A DNA stretch of 63,557 nucleotides, counting the filler, from Stramenopiles sp. TOSAG23-6 (Eukaryota): NCBI GenBank assembly GCA_900128565.1. It is 52 parts of 52 records of this genome, joined end to end, with 100 filler letters (N's around TTAATTAATTAA, not from the genome) between each part and the next. Parts side by side here need not be neighbours in the genome. Positions count along the whole stretch, not along the records: positions 60,020 to 61,133 come from LT639698.1; 51 more parts are not named here. One strand, 5' to 3'. Every line of letters starts with the position of its first letter. The first letter of the stretch is position 1. The position numbers and the translations under genes were made by a program. A model generated the notes under the pieces. It was not told where the DNA came from. It saw only the letters and a program-made list of their open reading frames with translations, and did not search any database. This document shows, in pieces, positions 4,966 through 63,557 of the stretch.

Positions 4966-5745
4966 ATGCTTCATTTTCTGCAGGATTCTCTCTATGCGAG
5001 CCTTCAATTTTTGTTGATCCACATTCTTTCTTATTGCGATTGGGCTGATAGCACCCACATGTATTTTGGAAAAATATGTCAAAAAAATTTAAAATTTTTT
5101 GTTAGGTACAAAATTTTTATAAAAAAAAAAATTCAAATTTTGGAAAAATATGTCAAAAAAATTTAAAAAATTTTGTTAGGTACAAAATTTCGTACGAAAA
5201 AAAAAATTCCAAAAAAATTCCAAAAAAAAAAATAAAATACATTCCTTCTCTGTCGTTTGTTGATATGCTACACATGTGTTTGTATCTATATCTTTTTGTA
5301 ATGATACATCGTTTGTTTTCCTCTTAAAAAGATCTGCACGATCAAGTACGTTTGATTTATCTGAAAAGTCGCAACACCAATAGTTACAACAAGTTGGTGT
5401 TTGATCATCTGCACCGTCAGGTAACTCAAAATTGGTACAGTTTATATTTGGAGCGGTACATTTAAAGTGTGCGGGCACATACAGTGCTCTCATAACATTA
5501 CCACCAACAACTGTACAACAGAAAAGTATCGAGAGAATAGGTAAACATGATCTAGTAGCACGTCCAGTTCTAGCATCAGCATCTCGACAGACTTGAGCAA
5601 ATTCTTGTGGTGACATGACTCCACGTAATCGCCCGTCCATTATATTTCTAGCAAACCTCGTACCAAGAGTATCCTTACAATTACTCCTTGAACCAGTTTC
5701 TGAGATATAAATCGTATTCGGATCTCGGGAAAATAGAGTACCCAT
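4966..5745 (-). CDS. Cys-rich membrane protein with MG start, spliced (intron 5059-5240 GT..AT), 3' partial
   Basis: ORF 5176-5745 joins in phase 1 to exon CGCYQPNRNKKECGS. Confidence 0.65.
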
Positions 5746-6171: not shown

Positions 6172-7304
6172 ACAAATGAATAAACAACAATGATATCAAA
6201 TATATTTGTCTTGATTAGTACAATCTTTAAAATACCCCAAACAACATCAACAATATCAGAATTATAAAACAAATGAATAAACAACAATGATATCATATAT
6301 ATATGTGTCTTGATTAGCACAATCTATAAAAATACATCCAACAACATCGACAATATCACAATTATGAAACAAACGAATAAACAACAATGATATCAAATAT
6401 ATTTGTCTTAATTAGTACAATCTATAAAATACGAAAAACAACATCAACGATACCACAATTATAAAGTGAATGAATAAACAACAATGATATCAAATATATA
6501 TTTGTCTTAATTAGTACAAAACAAACAATACTCTAAACAACATCAACAATAACATAAGTATAAAACAAATAAATAAACAACAATGATATCAAATATATTT
6601 GTCTTGATTAGTACAATCTCTAAAATACTTAAAACAACATCAACAATACCACAATTATAAAACAAATAAATAAACATCAATGATATCAAATATATTTGTC
6701 TGAATTAGTACAATGTGTAAAATACAATAAAAAACATCCACAATATCACAATTAAAAACCAAATGAATAAACAACAATGATATCAAATATATTCGTCTTG
6801 ACTAGTACAATGTATTGAATACTGAAAACAACATCAACAGTATCACCATTATTAAACAAATGAATAAACAACAATGATATCAAATATATTCGTCTTGACT
6901 AGTACAATCTATAAAATACTACAAACAACATCAACGATACCACAATTATAAAATAAATGAATAAACAACAATGATATCAAATATATTTGTCTTGATTACT
7001 ACAATGTATAAAATACTGCAAACAACATCAACAATATCAAAATTATGAAACAAATGTAAAAACGACAATGATATCAAATATATTTGTCTTGATTAGTACA
7101 ATGTATAAAATACTCAAAACAACATCAACAATATCACAATTATAAACCAAATGAATAAACAATAACCATATCAAATATATTTGGCTTCATTAGTACAATC
7201 TATAAAATACAGCAAATAAAATGAACAATATCACAATTATAAAAAAAATGAATAAACAACAATGATATCAAATATATTTGTCTTGATTAGTACAATCTAT
7301 AAAA
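6172..7304. repeat. ~97-bp AT-rich satellite, ~11 diverged copies
   Basis: Recurrent AAATGAATAAACAACAATGATATCAAATATATTTGTCTTGATTAGTACAATC at ~97-100 nt period. Confidence 0.95.
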
Positions 7305-14146: not shown

Positions 14147-14488
14147 CGAGGCGAACAACTCATGNNNNNNTCTTCATTTTTTTGGTATAAAATTCCGTAC
14201 CTAACGAATTTTTGTACTTCGAGCCAGTCCATTATTTGTGTACAAAACTGACAAAATTTCCGAAATTTGTGTGAAATTCGGTAAATTTCCGGAAATTTGA
14301 TTTTCTTTTTCGTACCAAATGGTACAAAATAATTTTTTTACCCCTCATGTTTCGTGAAATTTCGTACAAAGTCAGTTCCTCTGAGAGGAACTGAACTGAA
14401 AAATTTCCCTGCATCGACTCGTTTCGCTGCACCATTCTGTATTAACTTACAAACAAAAAGACCTCTTACATAAATCTCTTATTCTACA

Positions 14489-18230: not shown

Positions 18231-19022
18231 GCAGGTGAAGATGGACCATGAATGATGAAGAAAATATTTTCAAAAGTATACAGCATTGCTAAAAGTTGAA
18301 AAGATTCAATATGGAGATCAAGATATTGTGAAACTACTTTTCCATTCAAGAAAAGTTCTTTGATGTGTTGATATGTTNNNNNNNNNNNNNNNNNNNNNNN
18401 NNNNNNNNNNNNNNNNNNNNNTTAATTAATTAANNNNNNNNNNNNNNNNNNNNNNNNNNNNNNNNNNNNNNNNNNNNTCTTCATTTTGAGTCGTATAAGA
18501 GGAGGAGGTGGTGTTTTAGATTAGTTTTATATGTAGTAGGAAAGAGTTAAGATGAATTTCAATTGAATTTTTCAACGACCGAGGATATATATTTTTGAAA
18601 ATTTGTTAGGTACAACATTTCGTACGAAAAAAAACAAATTAAAGGTAATTTTATAAATCGGAAATCGCCGACCGGCGTCAAAAAAAAGAATCCTTATTTT
18701 TTATTTCTTTTTTGTATAATATAATATTCTTTCATAAATAACATTTATTTTTTTGTTATTTTTGTAGTATGTATGGACAACCACCATACATTCATTTAGT
18801 TAAGGTCCCTATATTATATAATCTCAAATCGTCCGTTAATATTTTTTTCCAAAATAAATACTTCGGATCATAAAAGTTGATCGATCGATAATCAGCCGGT
18901 CAGTCAAAAAAAAATAGAGCAAAAATCCAAAAATAGAAATAAGGTAAACAAGAGAACCTCCTAAGCTACAGTAGATTAAGTATTTCATACTCACTTGAAT
19001 GTAATATAGACTTTTGAACAAC

Positions 19023-21279: not shown

Positions 21280-22058
21280 ATGTCTCTCGCCTTTACAAGT
21301 CTACCACCTGCAGAAGCAGCCGAGGTTGTGGATGACAACCAAGGTAAACCGCTTTGTTTTGCTTCGGAGAGTCGTAATGTTGGAGAAGATGAAAAACTTC
21401 TCGCTGTTGATTTTCCTTCAGGAAATCGTCGAGTTGAAGAAGCTGAAGGTATTGTTGTCAATGAAGATAGCAATGCCGATGCTGACGACGTCTTTAACGG
21501 CAACTTCATTGAAGTGAACAAGCAAAGGTCGTGCCCCAATGAGTCAAGAGTGTTGAATGGCCTGAAAGTGGTCGCCACCCATTCTTCCCCCTCTTCGCCC
21601 CCTTCTTCCCTTCCTTCTTCGCCTCGTGTAGATGAAGCAGCCACGACTTCTGATACCTCCGCGAATTCAAGAAAGCGATGTCGTGTAGAGGAAGAGCCGT
21701 CGAAGGAAGCGAAGAAGCCAAAGACGAATTCAGTCTGGACTGATTGGGAAGATGACCTAGTGAGATGGGGAGTAAAAACGTTTGGGAAAAAATGGACTCC
21801 GATGTGTAAGGCCATTCTCAAAGTTAATCCTTCTTTTTCTAAAACTGTCCGCCAATGTACGTCTTCATCATTCAAAATTTATGTTTCTTTTTGTATCAAA
21901 CTTTTGAGTGTAATAATATTTCTGATCAATTTCTATTTTTTTTACAAGTACAGGTAGATGTCGCTGGAAGAGACATTTAGATCCGTCGCTAAAGCCGTCG
22001 TCGAAGCAAGCGAAGAAGCCAAAGACGAAATCAGGCGCGAAGAAGCCAAAGACGAAAT
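21280..22058 (+). CDS. Myb/SANT-domain protein; canonical GT-AG intron 21857-21953
   Basis: WTDWEDDLV...FGKKW...KTVRQ|CRCRWKRHLDP after splicing. Confidence 0.9.
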
Positions 22059-25835: not shown

Positions 25836-26960
25836 GTTATTATTGTTATTACTATTGTTATTATTACTATTGTTATTATTGTTATTACTAGTATTATTAT
25901 TATTATTATTATTACTATTGTTATTACTATTATTAGTCCAATCGACCAGAAAAGCAATGACATGCTCCCGTATTAAATTGACTACTTTATATACAACACA
26001 TTCCTTTTCCCATACAGAACACTTTTTCATAATAAAATCTTCAATATTAGAAAGAACCTCTGTTCCAAGCCAATTACCAACAGAACTAACATTTATTTTT
26101 GGTCCTGATTTTTCTGGATAATATTCGCTAAATTGAACACTGAGTACTAAAGGAGGGACATGTACAACACGTATTGAAGACGCTTTCCAAGAAGAAAATG
26201 TTGCATTTCCTAAATATTGATTATTTATAATTTTTGCAATCTCAATATTTTCCTTTTTCTTTTTCTTTTCAAGCAAGACTTCAGTCTTTGCTTCTTTTGC
26301 TAATTGTATTTGTTCCTCTGCATGTTGTTGGGCAAAATAAATAGTTTCTTGTTTATGATTGACTTTTGCCAAAGCTATTCTTGCATCTATATCTAGTGGT
26401 GACGTATAATCGAAATTAACCACTTGTTCTTCTACCTGTTTGTGCTCAATCAATGTGAAAAAATATTTCAAATAAAAAAAATCATTAGGTACAAAATTTC
26501 GTATGAAAAAAAAATCGAAATTGAAATGAAAACGTTCTTGGTTAGTTTTCAATCGCTCAATTTCACGAATTGTTTCTAATGCTTCCAAGTCAGCTACAAT
26601 TGCCCGATGTTCTGCGATCTCTATACATTTTGTGAAAATATTTTAAATTTGAGATTCTTTAGATATGAAATATAAGAAAAAAAATCATTAGGTACAAAAT
26701 TTCGTACCAAAAAAAAAAAATTGAAATTCATGATAAAAACGTACATGGATAAGTTATCTAAATCATAAATAGACATTCCTTCGCTCTGAAGTAATTGAAA
26801 CGTTTCTTCAAGCGAAAATAACTTTTCTTGAGCTTCTAAAAGAGGAACATTTGTTTGTTTATTTTGTTTCATATTCTTTTGTGCATTATTATTTTGTGTC
26901 ATGGCTTGCTTTGACTCCACTGGAACTGCCACACTTTGCTTTGACTCCACTGGAACTGCC
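25836..26960 (-). CDS. RWD-domain protein fragment (RNF14/ITT1-like), introns 26623-26744 (GT..AT) and 26537-~26445 (GA donor)
   Basis: HVPPLVLSVQFSEYYP...WL...W...VVYKVVNLIRE RWD motif; poly-Asn tract. Confidence 0.7.
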
Positions 26961-29900
26961 NNNNNNNNNNNNNNNNNNNNNNNNNNNNNNNNNNNNNNNN
27001 NNNNTTAATTAATTAANNNNNNNNNNNNNNNNNNNNNNNNNNNNNNNNNNNNNNNNNNNNGTTATTATTGTTATTACTATTGTTATTATTACTATTGTTA
27101 TTATTGTTATTACTAGTATTATTATTATTATTATTATTACTATTGTTATTACTATTATTAGTCCAATCGACCAGAAAAGCAATGACATGCTCCCGTATTA
27201 AATTGACTACTTTATATACAACACATTCCTTTTCCCATACAGAACACTTTTTCATAATAAAATCTTCAATATTAGAAAGAACCTCTGTTCCAAGCCAATT
27301 ACCAACAGAACTAACATTTATTTTTGGTCCTGATTTTTCTGGATAATATTCGCTAAATTGAACACTGAGTACTAAAGGAGGGACATGTACAACACGTATT
27401 GAAGACGCTTTCCAAGAAGAAAATGTTGCATTTCCTAAATATTGATTATTTATAATTTTTGCAATCTCAATATTTTCCTTTTTCTTTTTCTTTTCAAGCA
27501 AGACTTCAGTCTTTGCTTCTTTTGCTAATTGTATTTGTTCCTCTGCATGTTGTTGGGCAAAATAAATAGTTTCTTGTTTATGATTGACTTTTGCCAAAGC
27601 TATTCTTGCATCTATATCTAGTGGTGACGTATAATCGAAATTAACCACTTGTTCTTCTACCTGTTTGTGCTCAATCAATGTGAAAAAATATTTCAAATAA
27701 AAAAAATCATTAGGTACAAAATTTCGTATGAAAAAAAAATCGAAATTGAAATGAAAACGTTCTTGGTTAGTTTTCAATCGCTCAATTTCACGAATTGTTT
27801 CTAATGCTTCCAAGTCAGCTACAATTGCCCGATGTTCTGCGATCTCTATACATTTTGTGAAAATATTTTAAATTTGAGATTCTTTAGATATGAAATATAA
27901 GAAAAAAAATCATTAGGTACAAAATTTCGTACCAAAAAAAAAAAATTGAAATTCATGATAAAAACGTACATGGATAAGTTATCTAAATCATAAATAGACA
28001 TTCCTTCGCTCTGAAGTAATTGAAACGTTTCTTCAAGCGAAAATAACTTTTCTTGAGCTTCTAAAAGAGGAACATTTGTTTGTTTATTTTGTTTCATATT
28101 CTTTTGTGCATTATTATTTTGTGTCATGGCTTGCTTTGACTCCACTGGAACTGCCACACTTTGCTTTGACTCCACTGGAACTGCCNNNNNNNNNNNNNNN
28201 NNNNNNNNNNNNNNNNNNNNNNNNNNNNNTTAATTAATTAANNNNNNNNNNNNNNNNNNNNNNNNNNNNNNNNNNNNNNNNNNNNGTTATTATTGTTATT
28301 ACTATTGTTATTATTACTATTGTTATTATTGTTATTACTAGTATTATTATTATTATTATTATTACTATTGTTATTACTATTATTAGTCCAATCGACCAGA
28401 AAAGCAATGACATGCTCCCGTATTAAATTGACTACTTTATATACAACACATTCCTTTTCCCATACAGAACACTTTTTCATAATAAAATCTTCAATATTAG
28501 AAAGAACCTCTGTTCCAAGCCAATTACCAACAGAACTAACATTTATTTTTGGTCCTGATTTTTCTGGATAATATTCGCTAAATTGAACACTGAGTACTAA
28601 AGGAGGGACATGTACAACACGTATTGAAGACGCTTTCCAAGAAGAAAATGTTGCATTTCCTAAATATTGATTATTTATAATTTTTGCAATCTCAATATTT
28701 TCCTTTTTCTTTTTCTTTTCAAGCAAGACTTCAGTCTTTGCTTCTTTTGCTAATTGTATTTGTTCCTCTGCATGTTGTTGGGCAAAATAAATAGTTTCTT
28801 GTTTATGATTGACTTTTGCCAAAGCTATTCTTGCATCTATATCTAGTGGTGACGTATAATCGAAATTAACCACTTGTTCTTCTACCTGTTTGTGCTCAAT
28901 CAATGTGAAAAAATATTTCAAATAAAAAAAATCATTAGGTACAAAATTTCGTATGAAAAAAAAATCGAAATTGAAATGAAAACGTTCTTGGTTAGTTTTC
29001 AATCGCTCAATTTCACGAATTGTTTCTAATGCTTCCAAGTCAGCTACAATTGCCCGATGTTCTGCGATCTCTATACATTTTGTGAAAATATTTTAAATTT
29101 GAGATTCTTTAGATATGAAATATAAGAAAAAAAATCATTAGGTACAAAATTTCGTACCAAAAAAAAAAAATTGAAATTCATGATAAAAACGTACATGGAT
29201 AAGTTATCTAAATCATAAATAGACATTCCTTCGCTCTGAAGTAATTGAAACGTTTCTTCAAGCGAAAATAACTTTTCTTGAGCTTCTAAAAGAGGAACAT
29301 TTGTTTGTTTATTTTGTTTCATATTCTTTTGTGCATTATTATTTTGTGTCATGGCTTGCTTTGACTCCACTGGAACTGCCACACTTTGCTTTGACTCCAC
29401 TGGAACTGCCNNNNNNNNNNNNNNNNNNNNNNNNNNNNNNNNNNNNNNNNNNNNTTAATTAATTAANNNNNNNNNNNNNNNNNNNNNNNNNNNNNNNNNN
29501 NNNNNNNNNNGTTATTATTGTTATTACTATTGTTATTATTACTATTGTTATTATTGTTATTACTAGTATTATTATTATTATTATTATTACTATTGTTATT
29601 ACTATTATTAGTCCAATCGACCAGAAAAGCAATGACATGCTCCCGTATTAAATTGACTACTTTATATACAACACATTCCTTTTCCCATACAGAACACTTT
29701 TTCATAATAAAATCTTCAATATTAGAAAGAACCTCTGTTCCAAGCCAATTACCAACAGAACTAACATTTATTTTTGGTCCTGATTTTTCTGGATAATATT
29801 CGCTAAATTGAACACTGAGTACTAAAGGAGGGACATGTACAACACGTATTGAAGACGCTTTCCAAGAAGAAAATGTTGCATTTCCTAAATATTGATTATT

Positions 29901-32900
29901 TATAATTTTTGCAATCTCAATATTTTCCTTTTTCTTTTTCTTTTCAAGCAAGACTTCAGTCTTTGCTTCTTTTGCTAATTGTATTTGTTCCTCTGCATGT
30001 TGTTGGGCAAAATAAATAGTTTCTTGTTTATGATTGACTTTTGCCAAAGCTATTCTTGCATCTATATCTAGTGGTGACGTATAATCGAAATTAACCACTT
30101 GTTCTTCTACCTGTTTGTGCTCAATCAATGTGAAAAAATATTTCAAATAAAAAAAATCATTAGGTACAAAATTTCGTATGAAAAAAAAATCGAAATTGAA
30201 ATGAAAACGTTCTTGGTTAGTTTTCAATCGCTCAATTTCACGAATTGTTTCTAATGCTTCCAAGTCAGCTACAATTGCCCGATGTTCTGCGATCTCTATA
30301 CATTTTGTGAAAATATTTTAAATTTGAGATTCTTTAGATATGAAATATAAGAAAAAAAATCATTAGGTACAAAATTTCGTACCAAAAAAAAAAAATTGAA
30401 ATTCATGATAAAAACGTACATGGATAAGTTATCTAAATCATAAATAGACATTCCTTCGCTCTGAAGTAATTGAAACGTTTCTTCAAGCGAAAATAACTTT
30501 TCTTGAGCTTCTAAAAGAGGAACATTTGTTTGTTTATTTTGTTTCATATTCTTTTGTGCATTATTATTTTGTGTCATGGCTTGCTTTGACTCCACTGGAA
30601 CTGCCACACTTTGCTTTGACTCCACTGGAACTGCCNNNNNNNNNNNNNNNNNNNNNNNNNNNNNNNNNNNNNNNNNNNNTTAATTAATTAANNNNNNNNN
30701 NNNNNNNNNNNNNNNNNNNNNNNNNNNNNNNNNNNGTTATTATTGTTATTACTATTGTTATTATTACTATTGTTATTATTGTTATTACTAGTATTATTAT
30801 TATTATTATTATTACTATTGTTATTACTATTATTAGTCCAATCGACCAGAAAAGCAATGACATGCTCCCGTATTAAATTGACTACTTTATATACAACACA
30901 TTCCTTTTCCCATACAGAACACTTTTTCATAATAAAATCTTCAATATTAGAAAGAACCTCTGTTCCAAGCCAATTACCAACAGAACTAACATTTATTTTT
31001 GGTCCTGATTTTTCTGGATAATATTCGCTAAATTGAACACTGAGTACTAAAGGAGGGACATGTACAACACGTATTGAAGACGCTTTCCAAGAAGAAAATG
31101 TTGCATTTCCTAAATATTGATTATTTATAATTTTTGCAATCTCAATATTTTCCTTTTTCTTTTTCTTTTCAAGCAAGACTTCAGTCTTTGCTTCTTTTGC
31201 TAATTGTATTTGTTCCTCTGCATGTTGTTGGGCAAAATAAATAGTTTCTTGTTTATGATTGACTTTTGCCAAAGCTATTCTTGCATCTATATCTAGTGGT
31301 GACGTATAATCGAAATTAACCACTTGTTCTTCTACCTGTTTGTGCTCAATCAATGTGAAAAAATATTTCAAATAAAAAAAATCATTAGGTACAAAATTTC
31401 GTATGAAAAAAAAATCGAAATTGAAATGAAAACGTTCTTGGTTAGTTTTCAATCGCTCAATTTCACGAATTGTTTCTAATGCTTCCAAGTCAGCTACAAT
31501 TGCCCGATGTTCTGCGATCTCTATACATTTTGTGAAAATATTTTAAATTTGAGATTCTTTAGATATGAAATATAAGAAAAAAAATCATTAGGTACAAAAT
31601 TTCGTACCAAAAAAAAAAAATTGAAATTCATGATAAAAACGTACATGGATAAGTTATCTAAATCATAAATAGACATTCCTTCGCTCTGAAGTAATTGAAA
31701 CGTTTCTTCAAGCGAAAATAACTTTTCTTGAGCTTCTAAAAGAGGAACATTTGTTTGTTTATTTTGTTTCATATTCTTTTGTGCATTATTATTTTGTGTC
31801 ATGGCTTGCTTTGACTCCACTGGAACTGCCACACTTTGCTTTGACTCCACTGGAACTGCCNNNNNNNNNNNNNNNNNNNNNNNNNNNNNNNNNNNNNNNN
31901 NNNNTTAATTAATTAANNNNNNNNNNNNNNNNNNNNNNNNNNNNNNNNNNNNNNNNNNNNGTTATTATTGTTATTACTATTGTTATTATTACTATTGTTA
32001 TTATTGTTATTACTAGTATTATTATTATTATTATTATTACTATTGTTATTACTATTATTAGTCCAATCGACCAGAAAAGCAATGACATGCTCCCGTATTA
32101 AATTGACTACTTTATATACAACACATTCCTTTTCCCATACAGAACACTTTTTCATAATAAAATCTTCAATATTAGAAAGAACCTCTGTTCCAAGCCAATT
32201 ACCAACAGAACTAACATTTATTTTTGGTCCTGATTTTTCTGGATAATATTCGCTAAATTGAACACTGAGTACTAAAGGAGGGACATGTACAACACGTATT
32301 GAAGACGCTTTCCAAGAAGAAAATGTTGCATTTCCTAAATATTGATTATTTATAATTTTTGCAATCTCAATATTTTCCTTTTTCTTTTTCTTTTCAAGCA
32401 AGACTTCAGTCTTTGCTTCTTTTGCTAATTGTATTTGTTCCTCTGCATGTTGTTGGGCAAAATAAATAGTTTCTTGTTTATGATTGACTTTTGCCAAAGC
32501 TATTCTTGCATCTATATCTAGTGGTGACGTATAATCGAAATTAACCACTTGTTCTTCTACCTGTTTGTGCTCAATCAATGTGAAAAAATATTTCAAATAA
32601 AAAAAATCATTAGGTACAAAATTTCGTATGAAAAAAAAATCGAAATTGAAATGAAAACGTTCTTGGTTAGTTTTCAATCGCTCAATTTCACGAATTGTTT
32701 CTAATGCTTCCAAGTCAGCTACAATTGCCCGATGTTCTGCGATCTCTATACATTTTGTGAAAATATTTTAAATTTGAGATTCTTTAGATATGAAATATAA
32801 GAAAAAAAATCATTAGGTACAAAATTTCGTACCAAAAAAAAAAAATTGAAATTCATGATAAAAACGTACATGGATAAGTTATCTAAATCATAAATAGACA

Positions 32901-34310
32901 TTCCTTCGCTCTGAAGTAATTGAAACGTTTCTTCAAGCGAAAATAACTTTTCTTGAGCTTCTAAAAGAGGAACATTTGTTTGTTTATTTTGTTTCATATT
33001 CTTTTGTGCATTATTATTTTGTGTCATGGCTTGCTTTGACTCCACTGGAACTGCCACACTTTGCTTTGACTCCACTGGAACTGCCNNNNNNNNNNNNNNN
33101 NNNNNNNNNNNNNNNNNNNNNNNNNNNNNTTAATTAATTAANNNNNNNNNNNNNNNNNNNNNNNNNNNNNNNNNNNNNNNNNNNNGTTATTATTGTTATT
33201 ACTATTGTTATTATTACTATTGTTATTATTGTTATTACTAGTATTATTATTATTATTATTATTACTATTGTTATTACTATTATTAGTCCAATCGACCAGA
33301 AAAGCAATGACATGCTCCCGTATTAAATTGACTACTTTATATACAACACATTCCTTTTCCCATACAGAACACTTTTTCATAATAAAATCTTCAATATTAG
33401 AAAGAACCTCTGTTCCAAGCCAATTACCAACAGAACTAACATTTATTTTTGGTCCTGATTTTTCTGGATAATATTCGCTAAATTGAACACTGAGTACTAA
33501 AGGAGGGACATGTACAACACGTATTGAAGACGCTTTCCAAGAAGAAAATGTTGCATTTCCTAAATATTGATTATTTATAATTTTTGCAATCTCAATATTT
33601 TCCTTTTTCTTTTTCTTTTCAAGCAAGACTTCAGTCTTTGCTTCTTTTGCTAATTGTATTTGTTCCTCTGCATGTTGTTGGGCAAAATAAATAGTTTCTT
33701 GTTTATGATTGACTTTTGCCAAAGCTATTCTTGCATCTATATCTAGTGGTGACGTATAATCGAAATTAACCACTTGTTCTTCTACCTGTTTGTGCTCAAT
33801 CAATGTGAAAAAATATTTCAAATAAAAAAAATCATTAGGTACAAAATTTCGTATGAAAAAAAAATCGAAATTGAAATGAAAACGTTCTTGGTTAGTTTTC
33901 AATCGCTCAATTTCACGAATTGTTTCTAATGCTTCCAAGTCAGCTACAATTGCCCGATGTTCTGCGATCTCTATACATTTTGTGAAAATATTTTAAATTT
34001 GAGATTCTTTAGATATGAAATATAAGAAAAAAAATCATTAGGTACAAAATTTCGTACCAAAAAAAAAAAATTGAAATTCATGATAAAAACGTACATGGAT
34101 AAGTTATCTAAATCATAAATAGACATTCCTTCGCTCTGAAGTAATTGAAACGTTTCTTCAAGCGAAAATAACTTTTCTTGAGCTTCTAAAAGAGGAACAT
34201 TTGTTTGTTTATTTTGTTTCATATTCTTTTGTGCATTATTATTTTGTGTCATGGCTTGCTTTGACTCCACTGGAACTGCCACACTTTGCTTTGACTCCAC
34301 TGGAACTGCC
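25836..34310. repeat. Seven identical copies of one 1125-nt contig (period 1225 including linker)
   Basis: Identical sequence and ORFs, each copy bounded by linkers. Confidence 0.97.
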
Positions 34311-35398: not shown

Positions 35399-35763
35399 GT
35401 ATGTTTTTTTTTTTTTTTTTTTTTTTTTTAGAGAATTTTTTTTTCGTAAGAAATTTCGTACCTAAAAATTTTTTTTTTCGTACGAAATTTTGTACCTAAC
35501 AATTTTTTTTAGATTTTTTTTTTTGAAATATTTTTNNNNNNNNNNNNNNNNNNNNNNNNNNNNNNNNNNNNNNNNNNNNTTAATTAATTAANNNNNNNNN
35601 NNNNNNNNNNNNNNNNNNNNNNNNNNNNNNNNNNNTTATTTTTTTATTTTTCCTAATTTTTATATTGTTTTTTTATTTTTCCTAATTTTTGTATTTTTTT
35701 TTTTATTTTACCCAATTTTGCTTGCATTATTTTTTTATTTTTCCTAATTTTTATATTGTTTTT

Positions 35764-45413: not shown

Positions 45414-46533
45414 TTATTTTGATTTTTTTCAGATATTTTGTTGTTTTGATTTTTTTTTGGTAAAACACCACCAACATGTAATGATGTGTTATTTTCATCA
45501 TTATCAATTTTTCCATGAGTATTCCATAAAATTGCTGATGTTTGTTCATCATTAACCATTTTGGGTACAACATCATCATTAAACGAAAAAATATTTATAA
45601 AACCTAGATTTCGTGCATATATTGTCATTTGCTGTACAATGACTTCGTCATCGGAAGCACTGTATATATAGGATATATATAGGAAAATAGTACAACATTT
45701 AAAAAAAAAGTACAATTTTTTTTTTTTTTGTTATTAAAAAAAAAAAAAAAACCTAACCCTAATATAAAATTTTCTATACAAAAAAAAACGTACATAAAAA
45801 TTGATTTGATATTTGTCTTTTTTTTAAGTATTTCAATATGATTTACATAATCTGTTAATGGTGCATTGACACGATCATGACGCTTCCTGGAATCTCCAGT
45901 ACGAATATGTACCCCCACGATTGGAGCAGCTTTGTGCAAAGATTCAAAAAAATGTATTGAATTTTGAAATATCCATTTTTTTGGTTTCCATAACCATAAT
46001 TGAATTGAAGCAAACCAAAGTCCTGAAATCATTATTCTATTTTTTTTATTCTTTTTATTATTTTTATTATTTTTTGTAGAGTTTGTAGGGTTAGGGTTTG
46101 TAGGGTTAGGGTTTGTAGGGTTAGGGTTATAATCATGTAGTGTTGGACTTTTGCAAGAAGCTTGAAGAATTGATCTTGGTTTAAAAAAACCAATTCTAAA
46201 TATATTTTTTTCTATATTTTTTTCTATATTTGTTGTATTTGTTGTATTTGTTGTATTTGTTGTATTTGTTGTATTTTTCGTTTTTGTCAAAACCGAATTT
46301 GTACTTAATTTTGTACCTAAATGAAAAAGAGGAATGTCTTCTACAGAATTCTTTGTATGAAGTGTGAAAAAATATTTAAAAAAAAAAAAAAAAAAAATTA
46401 GGTTTTTAGGTTTACGTACAAAATTTCGTACGAAAAAAAAACCAAAAAAAAAAAAAAAAATTTCAAAAAAAAAAAACCAAAAAAAAAAAAAAAATTTCAA
46501 AAAAAAAAAAATCAACCTACATATGTTGTACAA
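45414..46533 (-). CDS. Fucosyltransferase (FUT8/NodZ-like); introns 46357-46520 (GT..AT) and 45660-45793 (GT-AG)
   Basis: PIVGVHIRTGD motif I and KSIF|IASDD motif II. Confidence 0.75.
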
Positions 46534-51561: not shown

Positions 51562-52560
51562 GTATGAACTCCTTGTTACAGATAGGATGTAGAGTCCGTG
51601 TTTTGTATGGAATTGATTTTATCAATTCCAATGATAGTAGTACGTTTTCATCATCAATTTTTCAAATGTATATATATTTATTGTACCCACTCCAAAGATT
51701 TTGTACCTAACGATTTTCAAAATTAGAACATATTTTTTTTTTCGTACGAAATGTTGTACCTAACGATTTTCAAAATTAGAACATATTTTTTCACAATACT
51801 GTAATTCCACACGAATATTTTGGCGAAGCGATTGAAAATTCCACAACCAATGTTGTCATTGATTTTGGCGATTCTGGCCAGTTTGCATTTGCAAAAATTA
51901 AAAATAGTAATGGTATGTCGTATATTGACCCTGACGGATGGAAAGTTTCAATGTTTGTGAATGATAACACTAAAGCTCATAATGGATCTAAACAAATATT
52001 TGTCGATGAAACTGCGACGTCTTCAGTGGTTGATGTCGAAAAAAGTATAGTTAAGTTGCAATGTGGACTCGCTGTTCGAGTGACATACGATGAGAGTTTT
52101 CGACATGCATTTCCTGAGGAAAAGTATGTATGTTTTATTTTTTTTTTTAACAAAAAATCGATTTTTTTTCGTATGAAATTTTGTACCTAACAAATTTTAG
52201 TTTTTTTTTTGAAATATTTTTCCAAAATATATGTCTTCACTGGTAAAATTTTATATTGTAGTGGGACAAATGTTGAGGTAGATTTTGGAAACAAAATAAA
52301 AATCGATTTCTCTCACGATGGATTTGGTGGTTTCACTGACGCTGACGGATGGATGGTCACTTTTGAAATCGTCTCAAAATCTCGTAATTCGAATAAATTG
52401 ATAAAACAGAAATTACCGATGTCAGTGAATAAGAATGTTGTATATAAAAAATCATCTACTGCTACTACGAAAAACGTAGATGCAGGTTTGAAGTCTATAA
52501 AAGTGAAAGAATCTCGTAAAGTAAAGGATAAGCCTTTTCACAAATTGTCCAAGCGCGAAT
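51562..52560 (+). CDS. Multi-exon protein with a duplicated beta domain; introns 51640-51801 (GT..TG), 52128-52232 (GT..AT), donor 52561 (GA)
   Basis: Internal repeats align (YFGEAIENSTTNVVIDFG / FTGKILYCSGTNVEVDFG) only with the non-canonical acceptors. Confidence 0.75.
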
Positions 52561-53993: not shown

Positions 53994-54333
53994 GTTATAA
54001 AGGAACTGATACTCATGATATATATAATATAGCATGGCCTAGTCCAACTATTGTTAGAAAAGCTCTTACCAAAGGATCTTTTCTAAGCCGAAGTCTTAAA
54101 GTGTGCATATATGTTTTATTTTTTTTTCAATTTTTATATTTTTTTTTTTCGTACGAAATTTTGTACCTAACAAAAAAAAAGAAAAAAAAAATTGACATAT
54201 TTTTTTACAATGTTTGATTAATCCTGATAAAAATATGAAATCGAGTTGGATAATGGGTGGAAAAGGTAAAACTGCAGATCGATTAGATGGAAAGAAGGAG
54301 AAAAAAATAAGTGATGATTGGACTTGTTACTGA
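53994..54333 (+). CDS. 3' exons of a hypothetical protein (branch-box intron ~54101-54206)
   Basis: Open exons YKGTDTHDIYNIAWP and INPDKNMKSSWIMGG. Confidence 0.55.
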
Positions 54334-54546
54334 AAAAAAAATGTATTTGGTTAGGTACAAAATTTTGTACGAAACAAAAAGAGAAATATTTTCAGTTTAA
54401 TATTCATTAAAAAATCTTTTTTTTTTTTACTCTTTTTTTATTTGATTTTTACAAAATTTTGTAATTGTCTTATAAAGAAATGGTATAAAATGTATAATCT
54501 GTAATTGCACTTTTGCATTCATTCAATCTTGTTTTTTTTATCATCA

Positions 54547-55158: not shown

Positions 55159-56274
55159 ATCTTCATCATCAACAATATCATTATTATTATCATCATTAAC
55201 AATATCATTAGTAGTAGTAGTAGTAGTAGTAGTAATACTATCATCAACAATATCATTATTATTATTAGTAGTTGTAAAACCATCATCAACAATATCATTA
55301 TTACTAATAGTAATACTACTACTACTAGTAAAACTATCAATATGATCATCATTTTTAATATTCTCATCATTCATTAATTTCTTTCTATGAAGAGCCATTG
55401 GAGGAGTTAATAAAGAAAAATGTTGTTTTTCATTACTTATTTTTTTTTTATCCGTTTCAGATAATTTTTTAAACGTTAAAACTAACAAATGAATAAAAAT
55501 TTCAGTTGATTTTTTGTTGTGTTTTGAAGCAGCCAAAAATAAACGCATGCATATTTAGATAATATGTCAAATAGAAAATTTTGTTAGGTATTTATTATTA
55601 TTATTATTAGTAGTAGTAGTAGTATTGAAAAAAAAAATTAATAAAAAAAAAAAAAAAAATGAAAACGTACATCACCAATTGTAGACCAACTTTTTGCATT
55701 AGAATCATCATCAGAATCATCATTTGTAGTCGTTTCAGGTATTTGAGTATCATTTGATACATTTAAAACATTTGAACCATTTGAATCATTTGTAGTTTCA
55801 CTTTGATGATTTTCTTCATTTTGTTCAAAATTATTATTTTTTTTCATAGCAAATTTTGTACCTAATGTATTTTCTTCATTCATATCATTTTTTTCAACAA
55901 ATATTGATGTTAAATCATCGCCATACGTTTCTTGTAATTTTTGATTTAATATTTTTTGTCTGTTTTTATATGCTTTTTCAATTGTTAGTATATCATTTAA
56001 TTTGTTTTTATTGTGTTTTGTATAAAAAATTACTAATTTATCATGAAATGTTGTATCATTATTATTATTGTTGTTGTTGGTAGTAGTATTGTTATTATTG
56101 TTGTTATTATTATTATTGGTGGTGGTCGGAGTAGTTGTTGTTGTTGGTGGTGGTGTATTAAAATCATTTTCATTATCAACAATATTATTATTATTAGTAG
56201 TAAAACTATCATCATCAACAATATTATTATTATTGGTAGTAGTAGTAGTAAAACTATCACCTTCATCATCAACA
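55159..56274 (-). CDS. Low-complexity (D/N/T-rich) protein fragment; intron ~55546-55670 without a usable AG
   Basis: ORFs 55638-55883 and 55111-55548 flank the AT|GTACGT donor and a TACCTAAC. Confidence 0.55.
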
Positions 56275-56374: not shown

Positions 56375-57489
56375 TTTTATAATTGTGATATTGTTGATGT
56401 TGTTTGGAGTATTTTATAGATTGTACTAATCAAGAAAAATATATTTGATATAATTGTTGTTTATTCATTTGTTTTATACTTGTGATATTGTTGATGTTGA
56501 TTGGCGTATTTTATAGCTTATACTAATCAAGACAAATATATTTGATATAATTGTTGTTTATTCAGTTGTTTTATACTTGTAATATTGTTGATGTTGACTG
56601 GAGTATTTTATAGATTGTACTAATCAAGACAAATATATTTGATATCATGGTTCTTGATTCATTTGTTTTATAATTGTGATATTGTTGATGTTGTTTTACG
56701 TATTTCATAGATTGTACTAATCAAGACAACTATATTTGATATTATTGTTGTTTATTCATTTATTTCATAATTGGGATATTGTTGATGTTGAATGGCGTAT
56801 TTTATAGATTGTACAAATCAATACAACAATATTTGTTATCATTGTTTTTTATTCATTTGTTTTATAATTCTGATATTGTTGACGTTGTTGATGTAGGTAT
56901 TTTATATATTTTGCAAATCATTACAACAATATTTGATGTTATTTTGGTTTATTCATTTGTTTTATAATTGTCATATTGTTGATGTTGTTTCAAGTATTTT
57001 TTAGATTGTACAAATCAATACAACAATATTTGATATCATTGTTGTTCATTCATTTGTTTCATACTTGTGATATTGTTGATGTTGTTTATGGTATGTGCTA
57101 TGAATTCAAAAAAAGCCACTATATTGGATAGAATTCTTGTTTTCGATTATTACTGTTGATTAATTTGTTTTATACTAATCATATTGTTGACATCATTGTG
57201 TGTATTTTATTTATTGTACAAACCAATACAACAATTTTCGATATCATTGTTGTTTATTCATTTGTTTTATAATTGTGATATTGTTGATGTTGATTGGCGT
57301 ATTTTATAGATTATACTAATGAAGACAAATATATTCGATATCATTGTTGTGTATTCATTTGTATTGTAATTGTGATATTGTTGATGATGTTTTTCGTATT
57401 TTATAGATTGTACTAATCAAGACAAATATAATTGATATAATTGTTGTTTATTCATTTGTTTTATAATTGTGATATTGTTGATGTTGTTT
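56375..57489. repeat. ~97-bp satellite (reverse orientation)
   Basis: Reverse complement of the 6172-7304 unit. Confidence 0.95.
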
Positions 57490-60019: not shown

Positions 60020-60063
<44 letters not shown>

Positions 60064-60106
60064 TTTTTTTTGACCAATTTCAAATGTAAAATATTTTTTC
60101 ATTACA

Positions 60107-61076
60107 CATGTCGATGGACATCAACATTGTCATATTAGAACGTGTATACGTGAAAATCTTGCTCATACATTTGCCACCGCTGGAGTTCGTTTTGTACGTA
60201 CGTTTTAGTTTTTTTCAATTTTTATCTACAGTTTTTTTTTCGTACGAAATTTCGTACCTAACGTTTTTTTTTTTTTTAAAGAAAATATTTTTTCACAATA
60301 TATGTATCCCAATAGAATGTAACAGCTTAAAAACATTATGTATTTCGTGTGGTCATGTTGTAGGAGAAGCTTCAAGTGCTCGTCAAGTGTATGAAAAATA
60401 TGGAATGAAGACTCCTTCATTGTTTGTCGGTCTAAGTTTTTGTGGTTCAACATACTCAGTACACGAAATGTATGTTTTTTTTTTTTTTTTCATGAATTTC
60501 AAATTTAATTTTTTTTTTATTTTTTTTTTTTTTTNTTTTTTTTTTAGGAAAAAAATGAAATTTTCATATTAGAAAAATAACGCAAATCTGCACAATAGTA
60601 AACAAAAACAAATTTTGAATTTTTTTCTGACCAATTTAACATGTCTNCATATTTTTTCACGATATTTGATTTGTGCAATAGAAAAACAACTTTTTGAAAA
60701 AAAAAAAAAAAATATTGGAGATGAAATCATTTTGGATGATAGAAATTCGTTAGGTACGAAAATAAGTACGAAAATAAATTCCCCAAGTATAAAAACGGAT
60801 CGTACTATTTTAGAAATAATGGTTCACCCGGGTGAACTCCCTAACCCTAATAAAAACCCTAAGAACCCTAACCCTAATAAAAACCATAAAAAACCTAAAC
60901 ATCTTAAAAATTGTAAAAACCCTAAAAAAAGTGATGAATTTTTATATGATAGTTTTCATATTTCTCCTGATCGATTTGAAGAATTAAAAACACTTTGTGA
61001 TCCAATACTGATTGAATATATGAACAATAACTATGAACTTGTTTCTTCATTAGAAGCATACAATAAAATAAAATAA
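60107..61076 (+). CDS. YDJC: YdjC-family carbohydrate deacetylase; intron 60198-60303 (GT..AT) and intron from 60470
   Basis: HVDGHQHCH, GVRFV|RIPIE, LEIMVHPG, DRFEELKTLCDP. Confidence 0.88.
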
Positions 61077-61341
61077 GTGATTTATGATATTTCTTTATTA
61101 GAAGCATACAATAAAATAAGCGATTTATGATATNNNNNNNNNNNNNNNNNNNNNNNNNNNNNNNNNNNNNNNNNNNNTTAATTAATTAANNNNNNNNNNN
61201 NNNNNNNNNNNNNNNNNNNNNNNNNNNNNNNNNAAAAAAAAAAAAAAAAACTCAAAAAAAAAAAAAAATCTCAAAAAAAAAAAAATCATACGAAATTTTG
61301 TACCTAACCAAAATTTGTTTTTTTTTTTAATATTTCACCAG

Positions 61342-62099
61342 AATGTATGAGTCAAGTTCAGATGATTTTACAGAGAGTTCAGAAGATGATTTCATGGATG
61401 TAGATAAAAAAGAAGATGTATGTTTTTATATCAAACCTAACCCTAATTTTTATATCAATTTTTTTATATCAAGATTTTTATATATCAAGATTTTTATATC
61501 AAAATTTTTATATCAATTTGTTTTTCATTTTTTTCTAAAATCAAAATTTTTATATATCAAAAAAAACCCTAACCCTAACCCTACATTGTCTACAATTGAA
61601 ATATTTTCATACACGAAATAATGCTCAAATTGTCAGTGTTTTACAACAAAATCAAACATTAAATCATCAAATAGGTAATGTTAAAAAAGAATTGAACAAA
61701 GCCATACAAGAGAAAATATCTTGGAAACAAAAATACAGAGAAACTTCCTCAAAATATGAAATTTTAGTACAAAAAAATCAAAATAATTCTAACCTACCGA
61801 ATAGCCCTAACCCTAATGAACCAGCTGCGACAGTTTTGTCACAAATGAAAATGAATGACAAAAATACATCGCGTTTATCACGATTAGTTCATTCTTTGAA
61901 ACAAAAAAATCAAAACATTCAAAATACAAATGTGATTTTACAAAAAGAAAATAAAAATTTACAAGATGAAAATAAAATGTTACAAAAACAAAATCGAATT
62001 CAAAATTTAAAAACACAAACTCAAAAAAAAGGTTTACAAGAAGAAAATCGAATTTTTAAAGATGAAATTGATAGTTTACAGACTGAAGTAGAGCGTATG
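61342..62099 (+). CDS. Coiled-coil protein fragment; intron 61418-~61610
   Basis: DKKED|TRNNAQ phase-0 join. Confidence 0.65.
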
Positions 62100-62445: not shown

Positions 62446-63557
62446 CGCCTTGTCAGAATGCTTTACGGGCGGAACGGACAGGTTCGAAATCTTTTCATCG
62501 GCCAGTTTTAGTTGCGTAGAGAAGTCGTTCACTTTTCGGCGTAAAGAGGCAGCCTCTTTCATGGCCCTGGAAAGGTTTTCTTTCAGGTCCGCCTGGTTAG
62601 CGCTGTTTTCGGCATGGTCGCTTTCGAGTGTGCTTACCTTTGCATTAGCCGCAAGGAGGTCATTTTCTAAGGTCTCGCATTTTTCGACCAGTGCTCCTCG
62701 CTCCCGCGTCACCGTTTCCAGCTCTTCTTCGAGCCGTTCCTCTTCTCGTTTCGCCTTTCTGACTTCATCTTCCATCTCTTTTTGGAGCGTGTCTTTCTCC
62801 TCTTGAAGCATTTCCATGTTCGTTGTCATGGTCTTAATGTTCTCCTTCAGCTCGTTGCATTCGTGCTTCGTAATTTTGATTGTGTCTTTCAGCCGCTCAA
62901 GCTCTTTGGCGTTGTTTTCCTCGAACTCCTGTAATGCTTTTGTGCATCGTTGGATTTCCCTCTGTTGTTCCTTTATCCTTCGTCTGTCTAAAGCTGAAGC
63001 TTGGCGAGCTTCGTGTAACTTCCCTGTCACCTCGGCCACGGTCGCCGACAGGCCCGCCGACCGTTCCTTCTCTGCTAACAGGTTCTTTTCTGCGTTTACG
63101 ATAACGTACTGCACCTCCCTCAACTCCTTTTGCATTTTGAAATTTTCATCTTTGAGGGCCTCGACTTCACTTTCTAGCTTCGCGGCCGCAGTCCGCACTT
63201 GCTCTTGCAAGGAGTTTATTTTGGTGACCTGCTTGTCTCTATTTAATTTCAGTGCTTCAATTTCCCGCTCGGACGATGTTATTTTATTTTTCAGCGTTTG
63301 TGAACCTTGCTTCTCGCATTCCAACAAGTCTTCCGTTTCTAACAGTTTCGTTTCTAATTTCATCAGTACGGCCTGCCCCTCCTCGTGAGTCTTTCGTGCG
63401 AACTGTAGCATTTTTCTACTAAATGGCACCATCTCTTTCTTCCAAATTTGAGCATTATTTGCCGCCTCCTCGACCGCTTTTTCTAAGTTGACCGTGGGCA
63501 TGGACGGTTTAATGGCACTCTTTCCCATCTCGTATGCCGTCTTCTGCTTGAAAAAAA
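62446..63557 (-). CDS. Long coiled-coil protein fragment, noticeably more GC-rich
   Basis: 376-aa heptad-rich ORF. Confidence 0.8.

Follow-up and report, generated by a model that had tools for sequence, protein, structure and literature searches.

The window, the whole stretch of DNA analysed here (63,557 nucleotides, linkers included), comprises 52 contigs of an AT-rich eukaryote (46 distinct), each of about 1.1 kb and joined by linkers. The 3′ part of a YdjC gene was located on the contig at 60020–61133, with the 5′ part of the gene lying beyond the contig; all features of the gene described here are on the plus strand. The contig opens in the 3′ part of an upstream intron (60020–60109, its 5′ part off the contig), placed by an RNA loose end and by family analogy, which is followed by an upstream exon (60110–60197, (H)VDGHQH ... 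GVRFV) that matches Pfam YdjC and is covered by an RNA contig. Intron A (60198–60303) separates this from a downstream exon (60304–60469, (R)IPIECNSL ... FVGLSFCGSTYSVHE), which matches eight YdjC-like proteins and has its first 23 nt in the RNA contig. Intron B (60470–60667), with a GTATGT donor, was placed by homology scoring, and the last exon (60668–61076, ICAIEKQL ... EIMVHPG ... stop) by profile and homology, with an RNA contig from sample X1 (see below) lying on 60991–61130 with one other letter.

The YdjC motifs HxDGHQH, RxPxE, GLSFCG and EIMVHPG occur in that order. The upstream exon matched Pfam PF04794 with E = 5e-4, single YdjC exons all falling below the Pfam cut-off, and word-based protein searches with single exons gave no matches. 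When the downstream exon was used as the query, nine protein matches were obtained, seven of them above the Pfam YdjC cut-off; the other two were a 71-aa fragment, which was kept, and a HEAT protein, which was dropped, so that eight relatives were used. Compared with the YdjC/ChbG carbohydrate deacetylases (PF04794), the host gene departs from an ordinary member only in its introns and in two loop inserts of low complexity; the last exon holds an antisense fragment of the core of the intron family described below (60779–60725) and CCCTAA runs, which are read as loop inserts.

Six proteins of the window had no exact match in the protein collection. Atlas searches with window proteins returned family names and no lineage. 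An OGT fragment of the window shares, by an eye count, about 44% of its residues with human OGT; this is low for an animal, and the host seems not to be one. Elsewhere in the window, an identical 1125-nt contig is present seven times (25836–34310), an artefact of assembly or packaging, and the whole contigs at 6172–7304 and 56375–57489 are filled by a diverged tandem repeat of roughly 85–90 nt. The contig at 62446–63557 has a GC content of 48%, against 21–41% elsewhere, and may derive from another organism.

Intron A is 106 nt long, lies in phase 1 and runs from GT to AT: the exon reads ...GTA C up to 60197, the intron begins GTACGT at 60198 and ends ...CACAATATAT at 60303, and the next exon opens GT ATC CCA ATA GAA. 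The spliced reading across the join is G-V-R-F-V-R-I-P-I-E. The original prediction had anchored a GT–AT intron at this position on the R-x-P-x-E segment of YdjC proteins, and this anchor held: R-[IV]-P-x-E was found in eight of the eight relatives, none lacking the RxP residues, and the query by which they were found did not contain the Arg codon. For scoring of the junction, all in-frame, stop-free pairs with a donor in 60180–60215 and an acceptor in 60280–60349 were compared with a profile of the eight relatives. The pair 60198–60303 came top of 656, at 117.7 bits, tied with three equivalents slid to the right by 1–3 nt (TA..TG, AC..GT and CG..TA), all of which give an identical mRNA. Shifts of 1–3 nt to the left place Cys where the relatives have Arg and score 111.3 bits. 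The claim that the register is fixed at a GT start was thus borne out against left shifts and not against the right slides; GT at 60198 is preferred because it fits the donor consensus and coincides with the boundary of the family.

Four other pairs were rejected on the RNA contig and on their lower homology scores, although all are in frame. These were GT60202..AT60307 (114.1 bits), GT60194..AT60299 (110.4 bits), the canonical GT60194..AG60281 (99.1 bits), which had not been considered in the original prediction, and GT60198..AG60315 (94.0 bits), which uses the ATAG acceptor. The last is the first in-phase AG for the 60198 donor; as predicted, it deletes RIPI from the product, and it scores 94.0 bits against the 117.7 bits of the AT junction.

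RNA evidence was sought in two seawater metatranscriptomes in the form of assembled contigs, X1 and X2, of which X2 was a poly(A) run; the share of the words of the window found in them was 0.12 and 0.05, respectively, small values that are not taken as a sign of habitat. One X2 contig (record 9; 207 nt, depth 6.6) aligns to 60107–60200 with one other letter, and 19 of the 20 nucleotides of its loose end equal 60307–60326, with a rough chance of 4e-6; the lone mismatch is at the wobble position of a Pro codon. As GTA follows both 60197 and 60303, the join in this contig is 60197|60304. The codons for I-P-I come straight after GTA, 60282–60303 is absent, and the contig joins at 60304 and not at ATAG. 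Intron A is thus missing from the contig with a precise join and 23 letters beyond it. This support comes from one contig of one study, and the 23 letters past the join, below the 31-letter rule for bridging, make it a loose end and not a joint; there were 83 pieces and 30 loose ends, and the RNA placements given here come from the 16 and 12 of them, respectively, that were listed. RNA support for intron A is thin but specific, and together with the top place among the 656 junctions it confirms the GT–AT intron at 60198..60303.

Four of the eight X1 pieces listed are other copies of the intron, in which the likeness begins exactly at 60198. At 60219–60254, very many short X1 contigs match the core of the intron only, with a summed depth of about 7100; these are unspliced copies, DNA or excised introns, which contigs cannot distinguish. 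An RNA joint that links 60774 to 60855 through 32 intervening letters, at depth 2.9, was set aside, as it looks like another organism or a repeat. Intron B and most of the two downstream exons had no RNA cover, a gap that counts neither for nor against their placement.

Two ways in which the GT..AT boundaries could be mistaken were weighed against these data. The AT end could be an artefact, through a T-for-G assembly error, or splicing could be canonical and use GT60194..AG60281 or GT60198..AG60315. The assembly is fragmented and homopolymer-rich, and both GT..AG pairs are in frame; against this, the X2 contig has I-P-I after GTA and nothing of 60282–60303, the two pairs score 18–24 bits lower, and the AT end recurs in 10 copies of the window and in an independent assembly. 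This explanation is largely refuted, and we give it hardly any weight. Alternatively, the cut could really lie 1–3 nt to the left (AC..AT, CG..TA or TA..TA), or the family could be one of AT..AC introns (U12-like) misread by two bases. AT flanks both ends of most copies, where either reading gives the same mRNA, and the unplaced other letter of the X2 contig could be at 60197. Since a T at 60197 would also amount to one difference in that contig, the RNA alone is no bar to a left shift, which is disfavoured because of the Arg in all eight relatives and the family boundary. Few copies of the family rule out an AT..AC reading, and intron A is one of them. Either form of this second explanation is held to be scarcely credible, and the GT..AT reading is kept below.

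The two other introns of the gene were then compared with intron A. Before 60107 the X2 contig leaves the window and reads ...G-C-P-S-P ahead of HVDGHQH, as the relatives do, and the upstream intron therefore ends at 60106–60109. No AG occurs anywhere in 60020–60112; by analogy with the family, the end of this intron would be ...ACACAT. This single contig thus shows two non-AG acceptors, those of the upstream intron and of intron A. For intron B, homology scoring gave TT at 60667 as the best end from a GT start (103.9 bits), with a GT..AT reading ending at 60670 (98.9 bits) and an AT..AT reading at 60468–60665 (105.0 bits) as alternatives; AG occurs at 60547 and 60681, and a GT or GC donor paired with either one leaves no open frame. 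The upstream intron and intron B, both of which are without the palindrome described next, also lack an AG end.

Intron A is one copy of a repeated family, to which most of the introns examined in the window belong. The family consensus opens with GTAYGT and a T-rich spacer. Next comes a 16-nt palindrome that closes in CCTAAC, and then a second spacer, which varies, AAATATTTTT and about 10 bases, the last three of which are YAT or YAG. In intron A, the 5′ splice site GTACGT (60198–60203, plus strand) has one mismatch to GTATGT and is U2- or yeast-like. The family core (60242–60262), identified from aligned copies, comprises the palindrome at 60242–60257 and then CCTAAC, and forms a 6-bp hairpin in the predicted fold; the branch A would lie at 60261, 42 nt before the end of the intron. 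Aligned copies likewise define the 3′ box (60282–60303), in which AAAATATTTTTT is followed by CACAATATAT, ending in TAT. A family profile built from 10 other copies, with the contig of intron A left out, matches 60198–60302 over its full length with E = 1.2e-11.

The ends of 15 typical complete copies, set by the family consensus, were 11 AT and 4 AG in the same context; nine atypical or undecidable copies, intron B among them, and copies cut by contig ends were left out of this count. The AT end keeps the frame in all 11 AT copies and is the sole open frame in 8 of them. In 9 of the 11, some in-frame GT or GC..AG alternative lies within 15/45 nt (in 4, from the same donor), and the frame alone is therefore no proof of the AT copies. 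When the exons next to other copies were searched with Pfam, no further firm anchor for an AT end emerged. The CCTAAC box is present in 14 of the 15 copies, 35–65 nt before the end, the T tract and 3′ box are conserved, and the acceptor follows the last T tract by 7–13 nt. Of the complete introns examined in the window, more belong to the GT..AT class than to any other, and this class appears to be the commonest in the genome.

Of 27 hand-picked donors, 23 were GT, 2 GA, 1 GC and 1 AT, and 18 read GTAYGT; 19 of the 27 are preceded by AT at the end of the exon, against a background of 9%. The GA, GA, AT and GC donors belong to the copies at 26537 (minus strand), 52561 (plus), 54109 (plus) and 40874 (minus), the last being a GC..AG copy in an ABCC-type transporter gene. 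A GT..AG intron in a Myb-like gene (21857–21953) has no family core and is also preceded by exonic AT. The core and 3′ box are tandemly duplicated in the introns at 5240–5059 (minus strand), 35399–35535 and 51640–51800. Telomere-like CCCTAA/TTAGGG runs occur within an exon and within introns, at 60838–60880, 61430–61590, 45700–45760 and 46090–46125, and the branch hexamer CCTAAC is itself a permutation of this repeat.

With regard to splicing class, intron A has the GT donor, CCTAAC box and T tracts of U2-type introns, and its 3′ end is AT where AG is usual. A U12-type assignment was rejected: relative to the U12 donor consensus, RTATCCTT, there are 3 mismatches in positions 3–8 in intron A and 2–4 in the 15 copies, and the branch box stands 35–65 nt from the end. 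The AG-ending sister copies share the same anatomy, which indicates the ordinary spliceosome. Intron A is, in our judgement, probably a member of an introner-like family that is removed by the U2-type spliceosome at a YAU acceptor. The GTAYGT donor would be read by U1/U6, the branch point for U2 would be the A in CCTAAC, and the choice of acceptor would depend on position, 7–13 nt beyond the last T tract, together with an A at −2, and −1 could be either U or G. The AG rule would then have been relaxed by the cell, rather than a new enzyme having evolved. No snRNA or splicing-factor gene was found in the window, and Rfam gave 0 matches.

The excision of intron A could instead be non-spliceosomal and guided by structure, as in euglenids, with pairing of ATGTAT and ATACAT bringing the ends together and another enzyme making the cuts. 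The consensus ends do form a short inverted repeat, which pairs over 3–8 of 8 positions in the 15 copies (counted without a control), and the predicted fold pairs both junctions of intron A. That fold is weak, however (z = −1.79, with 9 of 200 shuffles equally good), the repeat in intron A reaches only 3 of 8, and the conserved U2-like donor, branch box and T tract, together with sister copies that end in a canonical YAG, speak against it. Because the fold is marginal, this route is very unlikely, and removal by the spliceosome remains the preferred reading.

The copies were next compared with one another. A motif scan of metagenome contigs recovered a single locus (L001); there, in a different assembly, an unrelated gene carries an intron that is identical to intron A at 92 of 106 positions and ends in TACAT. 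Intron A scored above shuffles against the 14 other copies with z = 3.8–15.4 for 13 of them and 2.0 for one, and the first 65 nt, spacer included, are near-identical between introns of unrelated genes. Partial copies were also found outside sense introns, antisense in exons or in intergenic DNA, five of them with E values of 2e-8 to 3e-5. The near-identity of the spacer between unrelated genes and the antisense and intergenic core fragments suggest copying, and we infer, with less confidence than for the splicing class, that the family may have spread as a small non-autonomous mobile element. No target duplication specific to a copy was seen: AT is often present at both ends, and a copy's own pair of flanks matched as well as random pairs did. 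The terminal inverted repeat is weak, with 3 of 8 positions paired in intron A.

Antisense core fragments in coding frames are read as L-G-T-K loop inserts, one of them in the last YdjC exon (60725–60779, minus strand, E = 4e-6) and others in two further genes (55835–55880 and 46279–46320, plus strand, E = 3e-5 and 0.03, respectively). Donorless partial copies lie in intergenic or 3′ regions at 14177–14218, 18593–18640 and 54333–54383.

The shared sequence might also be no trace of a mobile element. The intron would then be a real U2-type GT..AT intron, and what its copies have in common an unusually long splice signal, in which the branch and acceptor boxes are extended, held by selection and read by co-evolved snRNAs or U2AF. 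Such a signal would fit the lack of a copy-specific target duplication, the exonic AT before 19 of 27 donors, which resembles a signal, and the two palindrome-less YdjC introns that also do without AG. It fits poorly with 65 nt of near-identity that extends through a spacer in unrelated genes, and with core fragments lying antisense in exons or between genes, where a signal would be useless. We regard this explanation as unlikely, if less so than structure-guided excision, and return to the introner-like reading.

Similarities to known systems were sought in the literature. In the available portions of the reports on Fritillaria, 3′ AT is given for 44% of introns in F. pellucida and 34% in F. 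borealis (PMC13326754), the introns are repeat-derived and those with 3′ AT are handled by a U2-type spliceosome (PMC13326754, PMC11282704), and U2AF is duplicated (PMC13326754). A YAY triplet there closes the intron and also stands before the donor, as YAT and AT do here; the main Fritillaria classes are AG/AC and AG/AT, whereas here the donor is the canonical GTAYGT and the acceptor alone departs (PMC13326754). Introners are described as widespread, in Micromonas, Aureococcus, Chrysochromulina and others (PMC9860276, PMC12130899, PMC11282704), and they resemble the present family in that unrelated genes share short, similar introns, copies also occur outside introns and the element carries the 5′ site. 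As far as the available text of these papers goes, their 3′ sites are AG or AC, in contrast to the mostly AT ends here, and many of their families have target duplications or inverted repeats, in contrast to the lack of copy-specific duplication here. The branch motif was absent from the searched portion of the PMC9860276 supplement file.

Amoebophrya, a marine protist, likewise has a majority of non GT–AG introns that are partly repeated; according to the available part of that report, these have no clear terminal signature and carry inverted repeats of 8–20 nt (PMC7789003), whereas the donor here is strictly GT, a branch box is present and a single alternative acceptor predominates. Rare mammalian GT–AT introns are documented in the accessible part of PMC1557818, of U2-type in DGCR2 and of U12-type in DEADC1 and SLC24A6; these cases show splicing of GT..AT ends but are isolated, whereas here more of the complete introns examined fall into this class than into any other. 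The available portions of PMC10639083 and PMC13149111 make no mention of GT–AT, and no GT–AT-dominated protist was found in the literature searched, outside which most subscription papers fall.

A broader reading, which we put forward tentatively as a possibility on the weaker side of even, is that the default acceptor of the major spliceosome has switched from YAG to YAU in this lineage, with the GU donor kept and independently of Fritillaria. Distance and the conserved box would define the 3′ site, the exonic flank of the donor would also have changed from AG to AU (19 of 27), U1, U5 and U2AF would have co-evolved, and even introns without the core would end without AG. If the YAU switch is true, the proposed docking of the acceptor by pairing between G(+1) and G(−1) would be dispensable genome-wide.

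Few rules of gene expression are as conserved as the AG that terminates introns, and this family behaves like introner-type U2 introns yet departs from that rule. GT..AT as the commonest class isolates one change, from G to U at acceptor position −1, with the donor constant. It offers a cleaner natural test of 3′-site choice by U2AF, Prp8 and the donor G than Fritillaria, in which both ends differ, and intron A, for which the AT..AC reading is impossible and RNA contig cover exists, is a good test case. Standard gene prediction would break genes of the host lineage, and introner surveys based on annotated introns would overlook the family.
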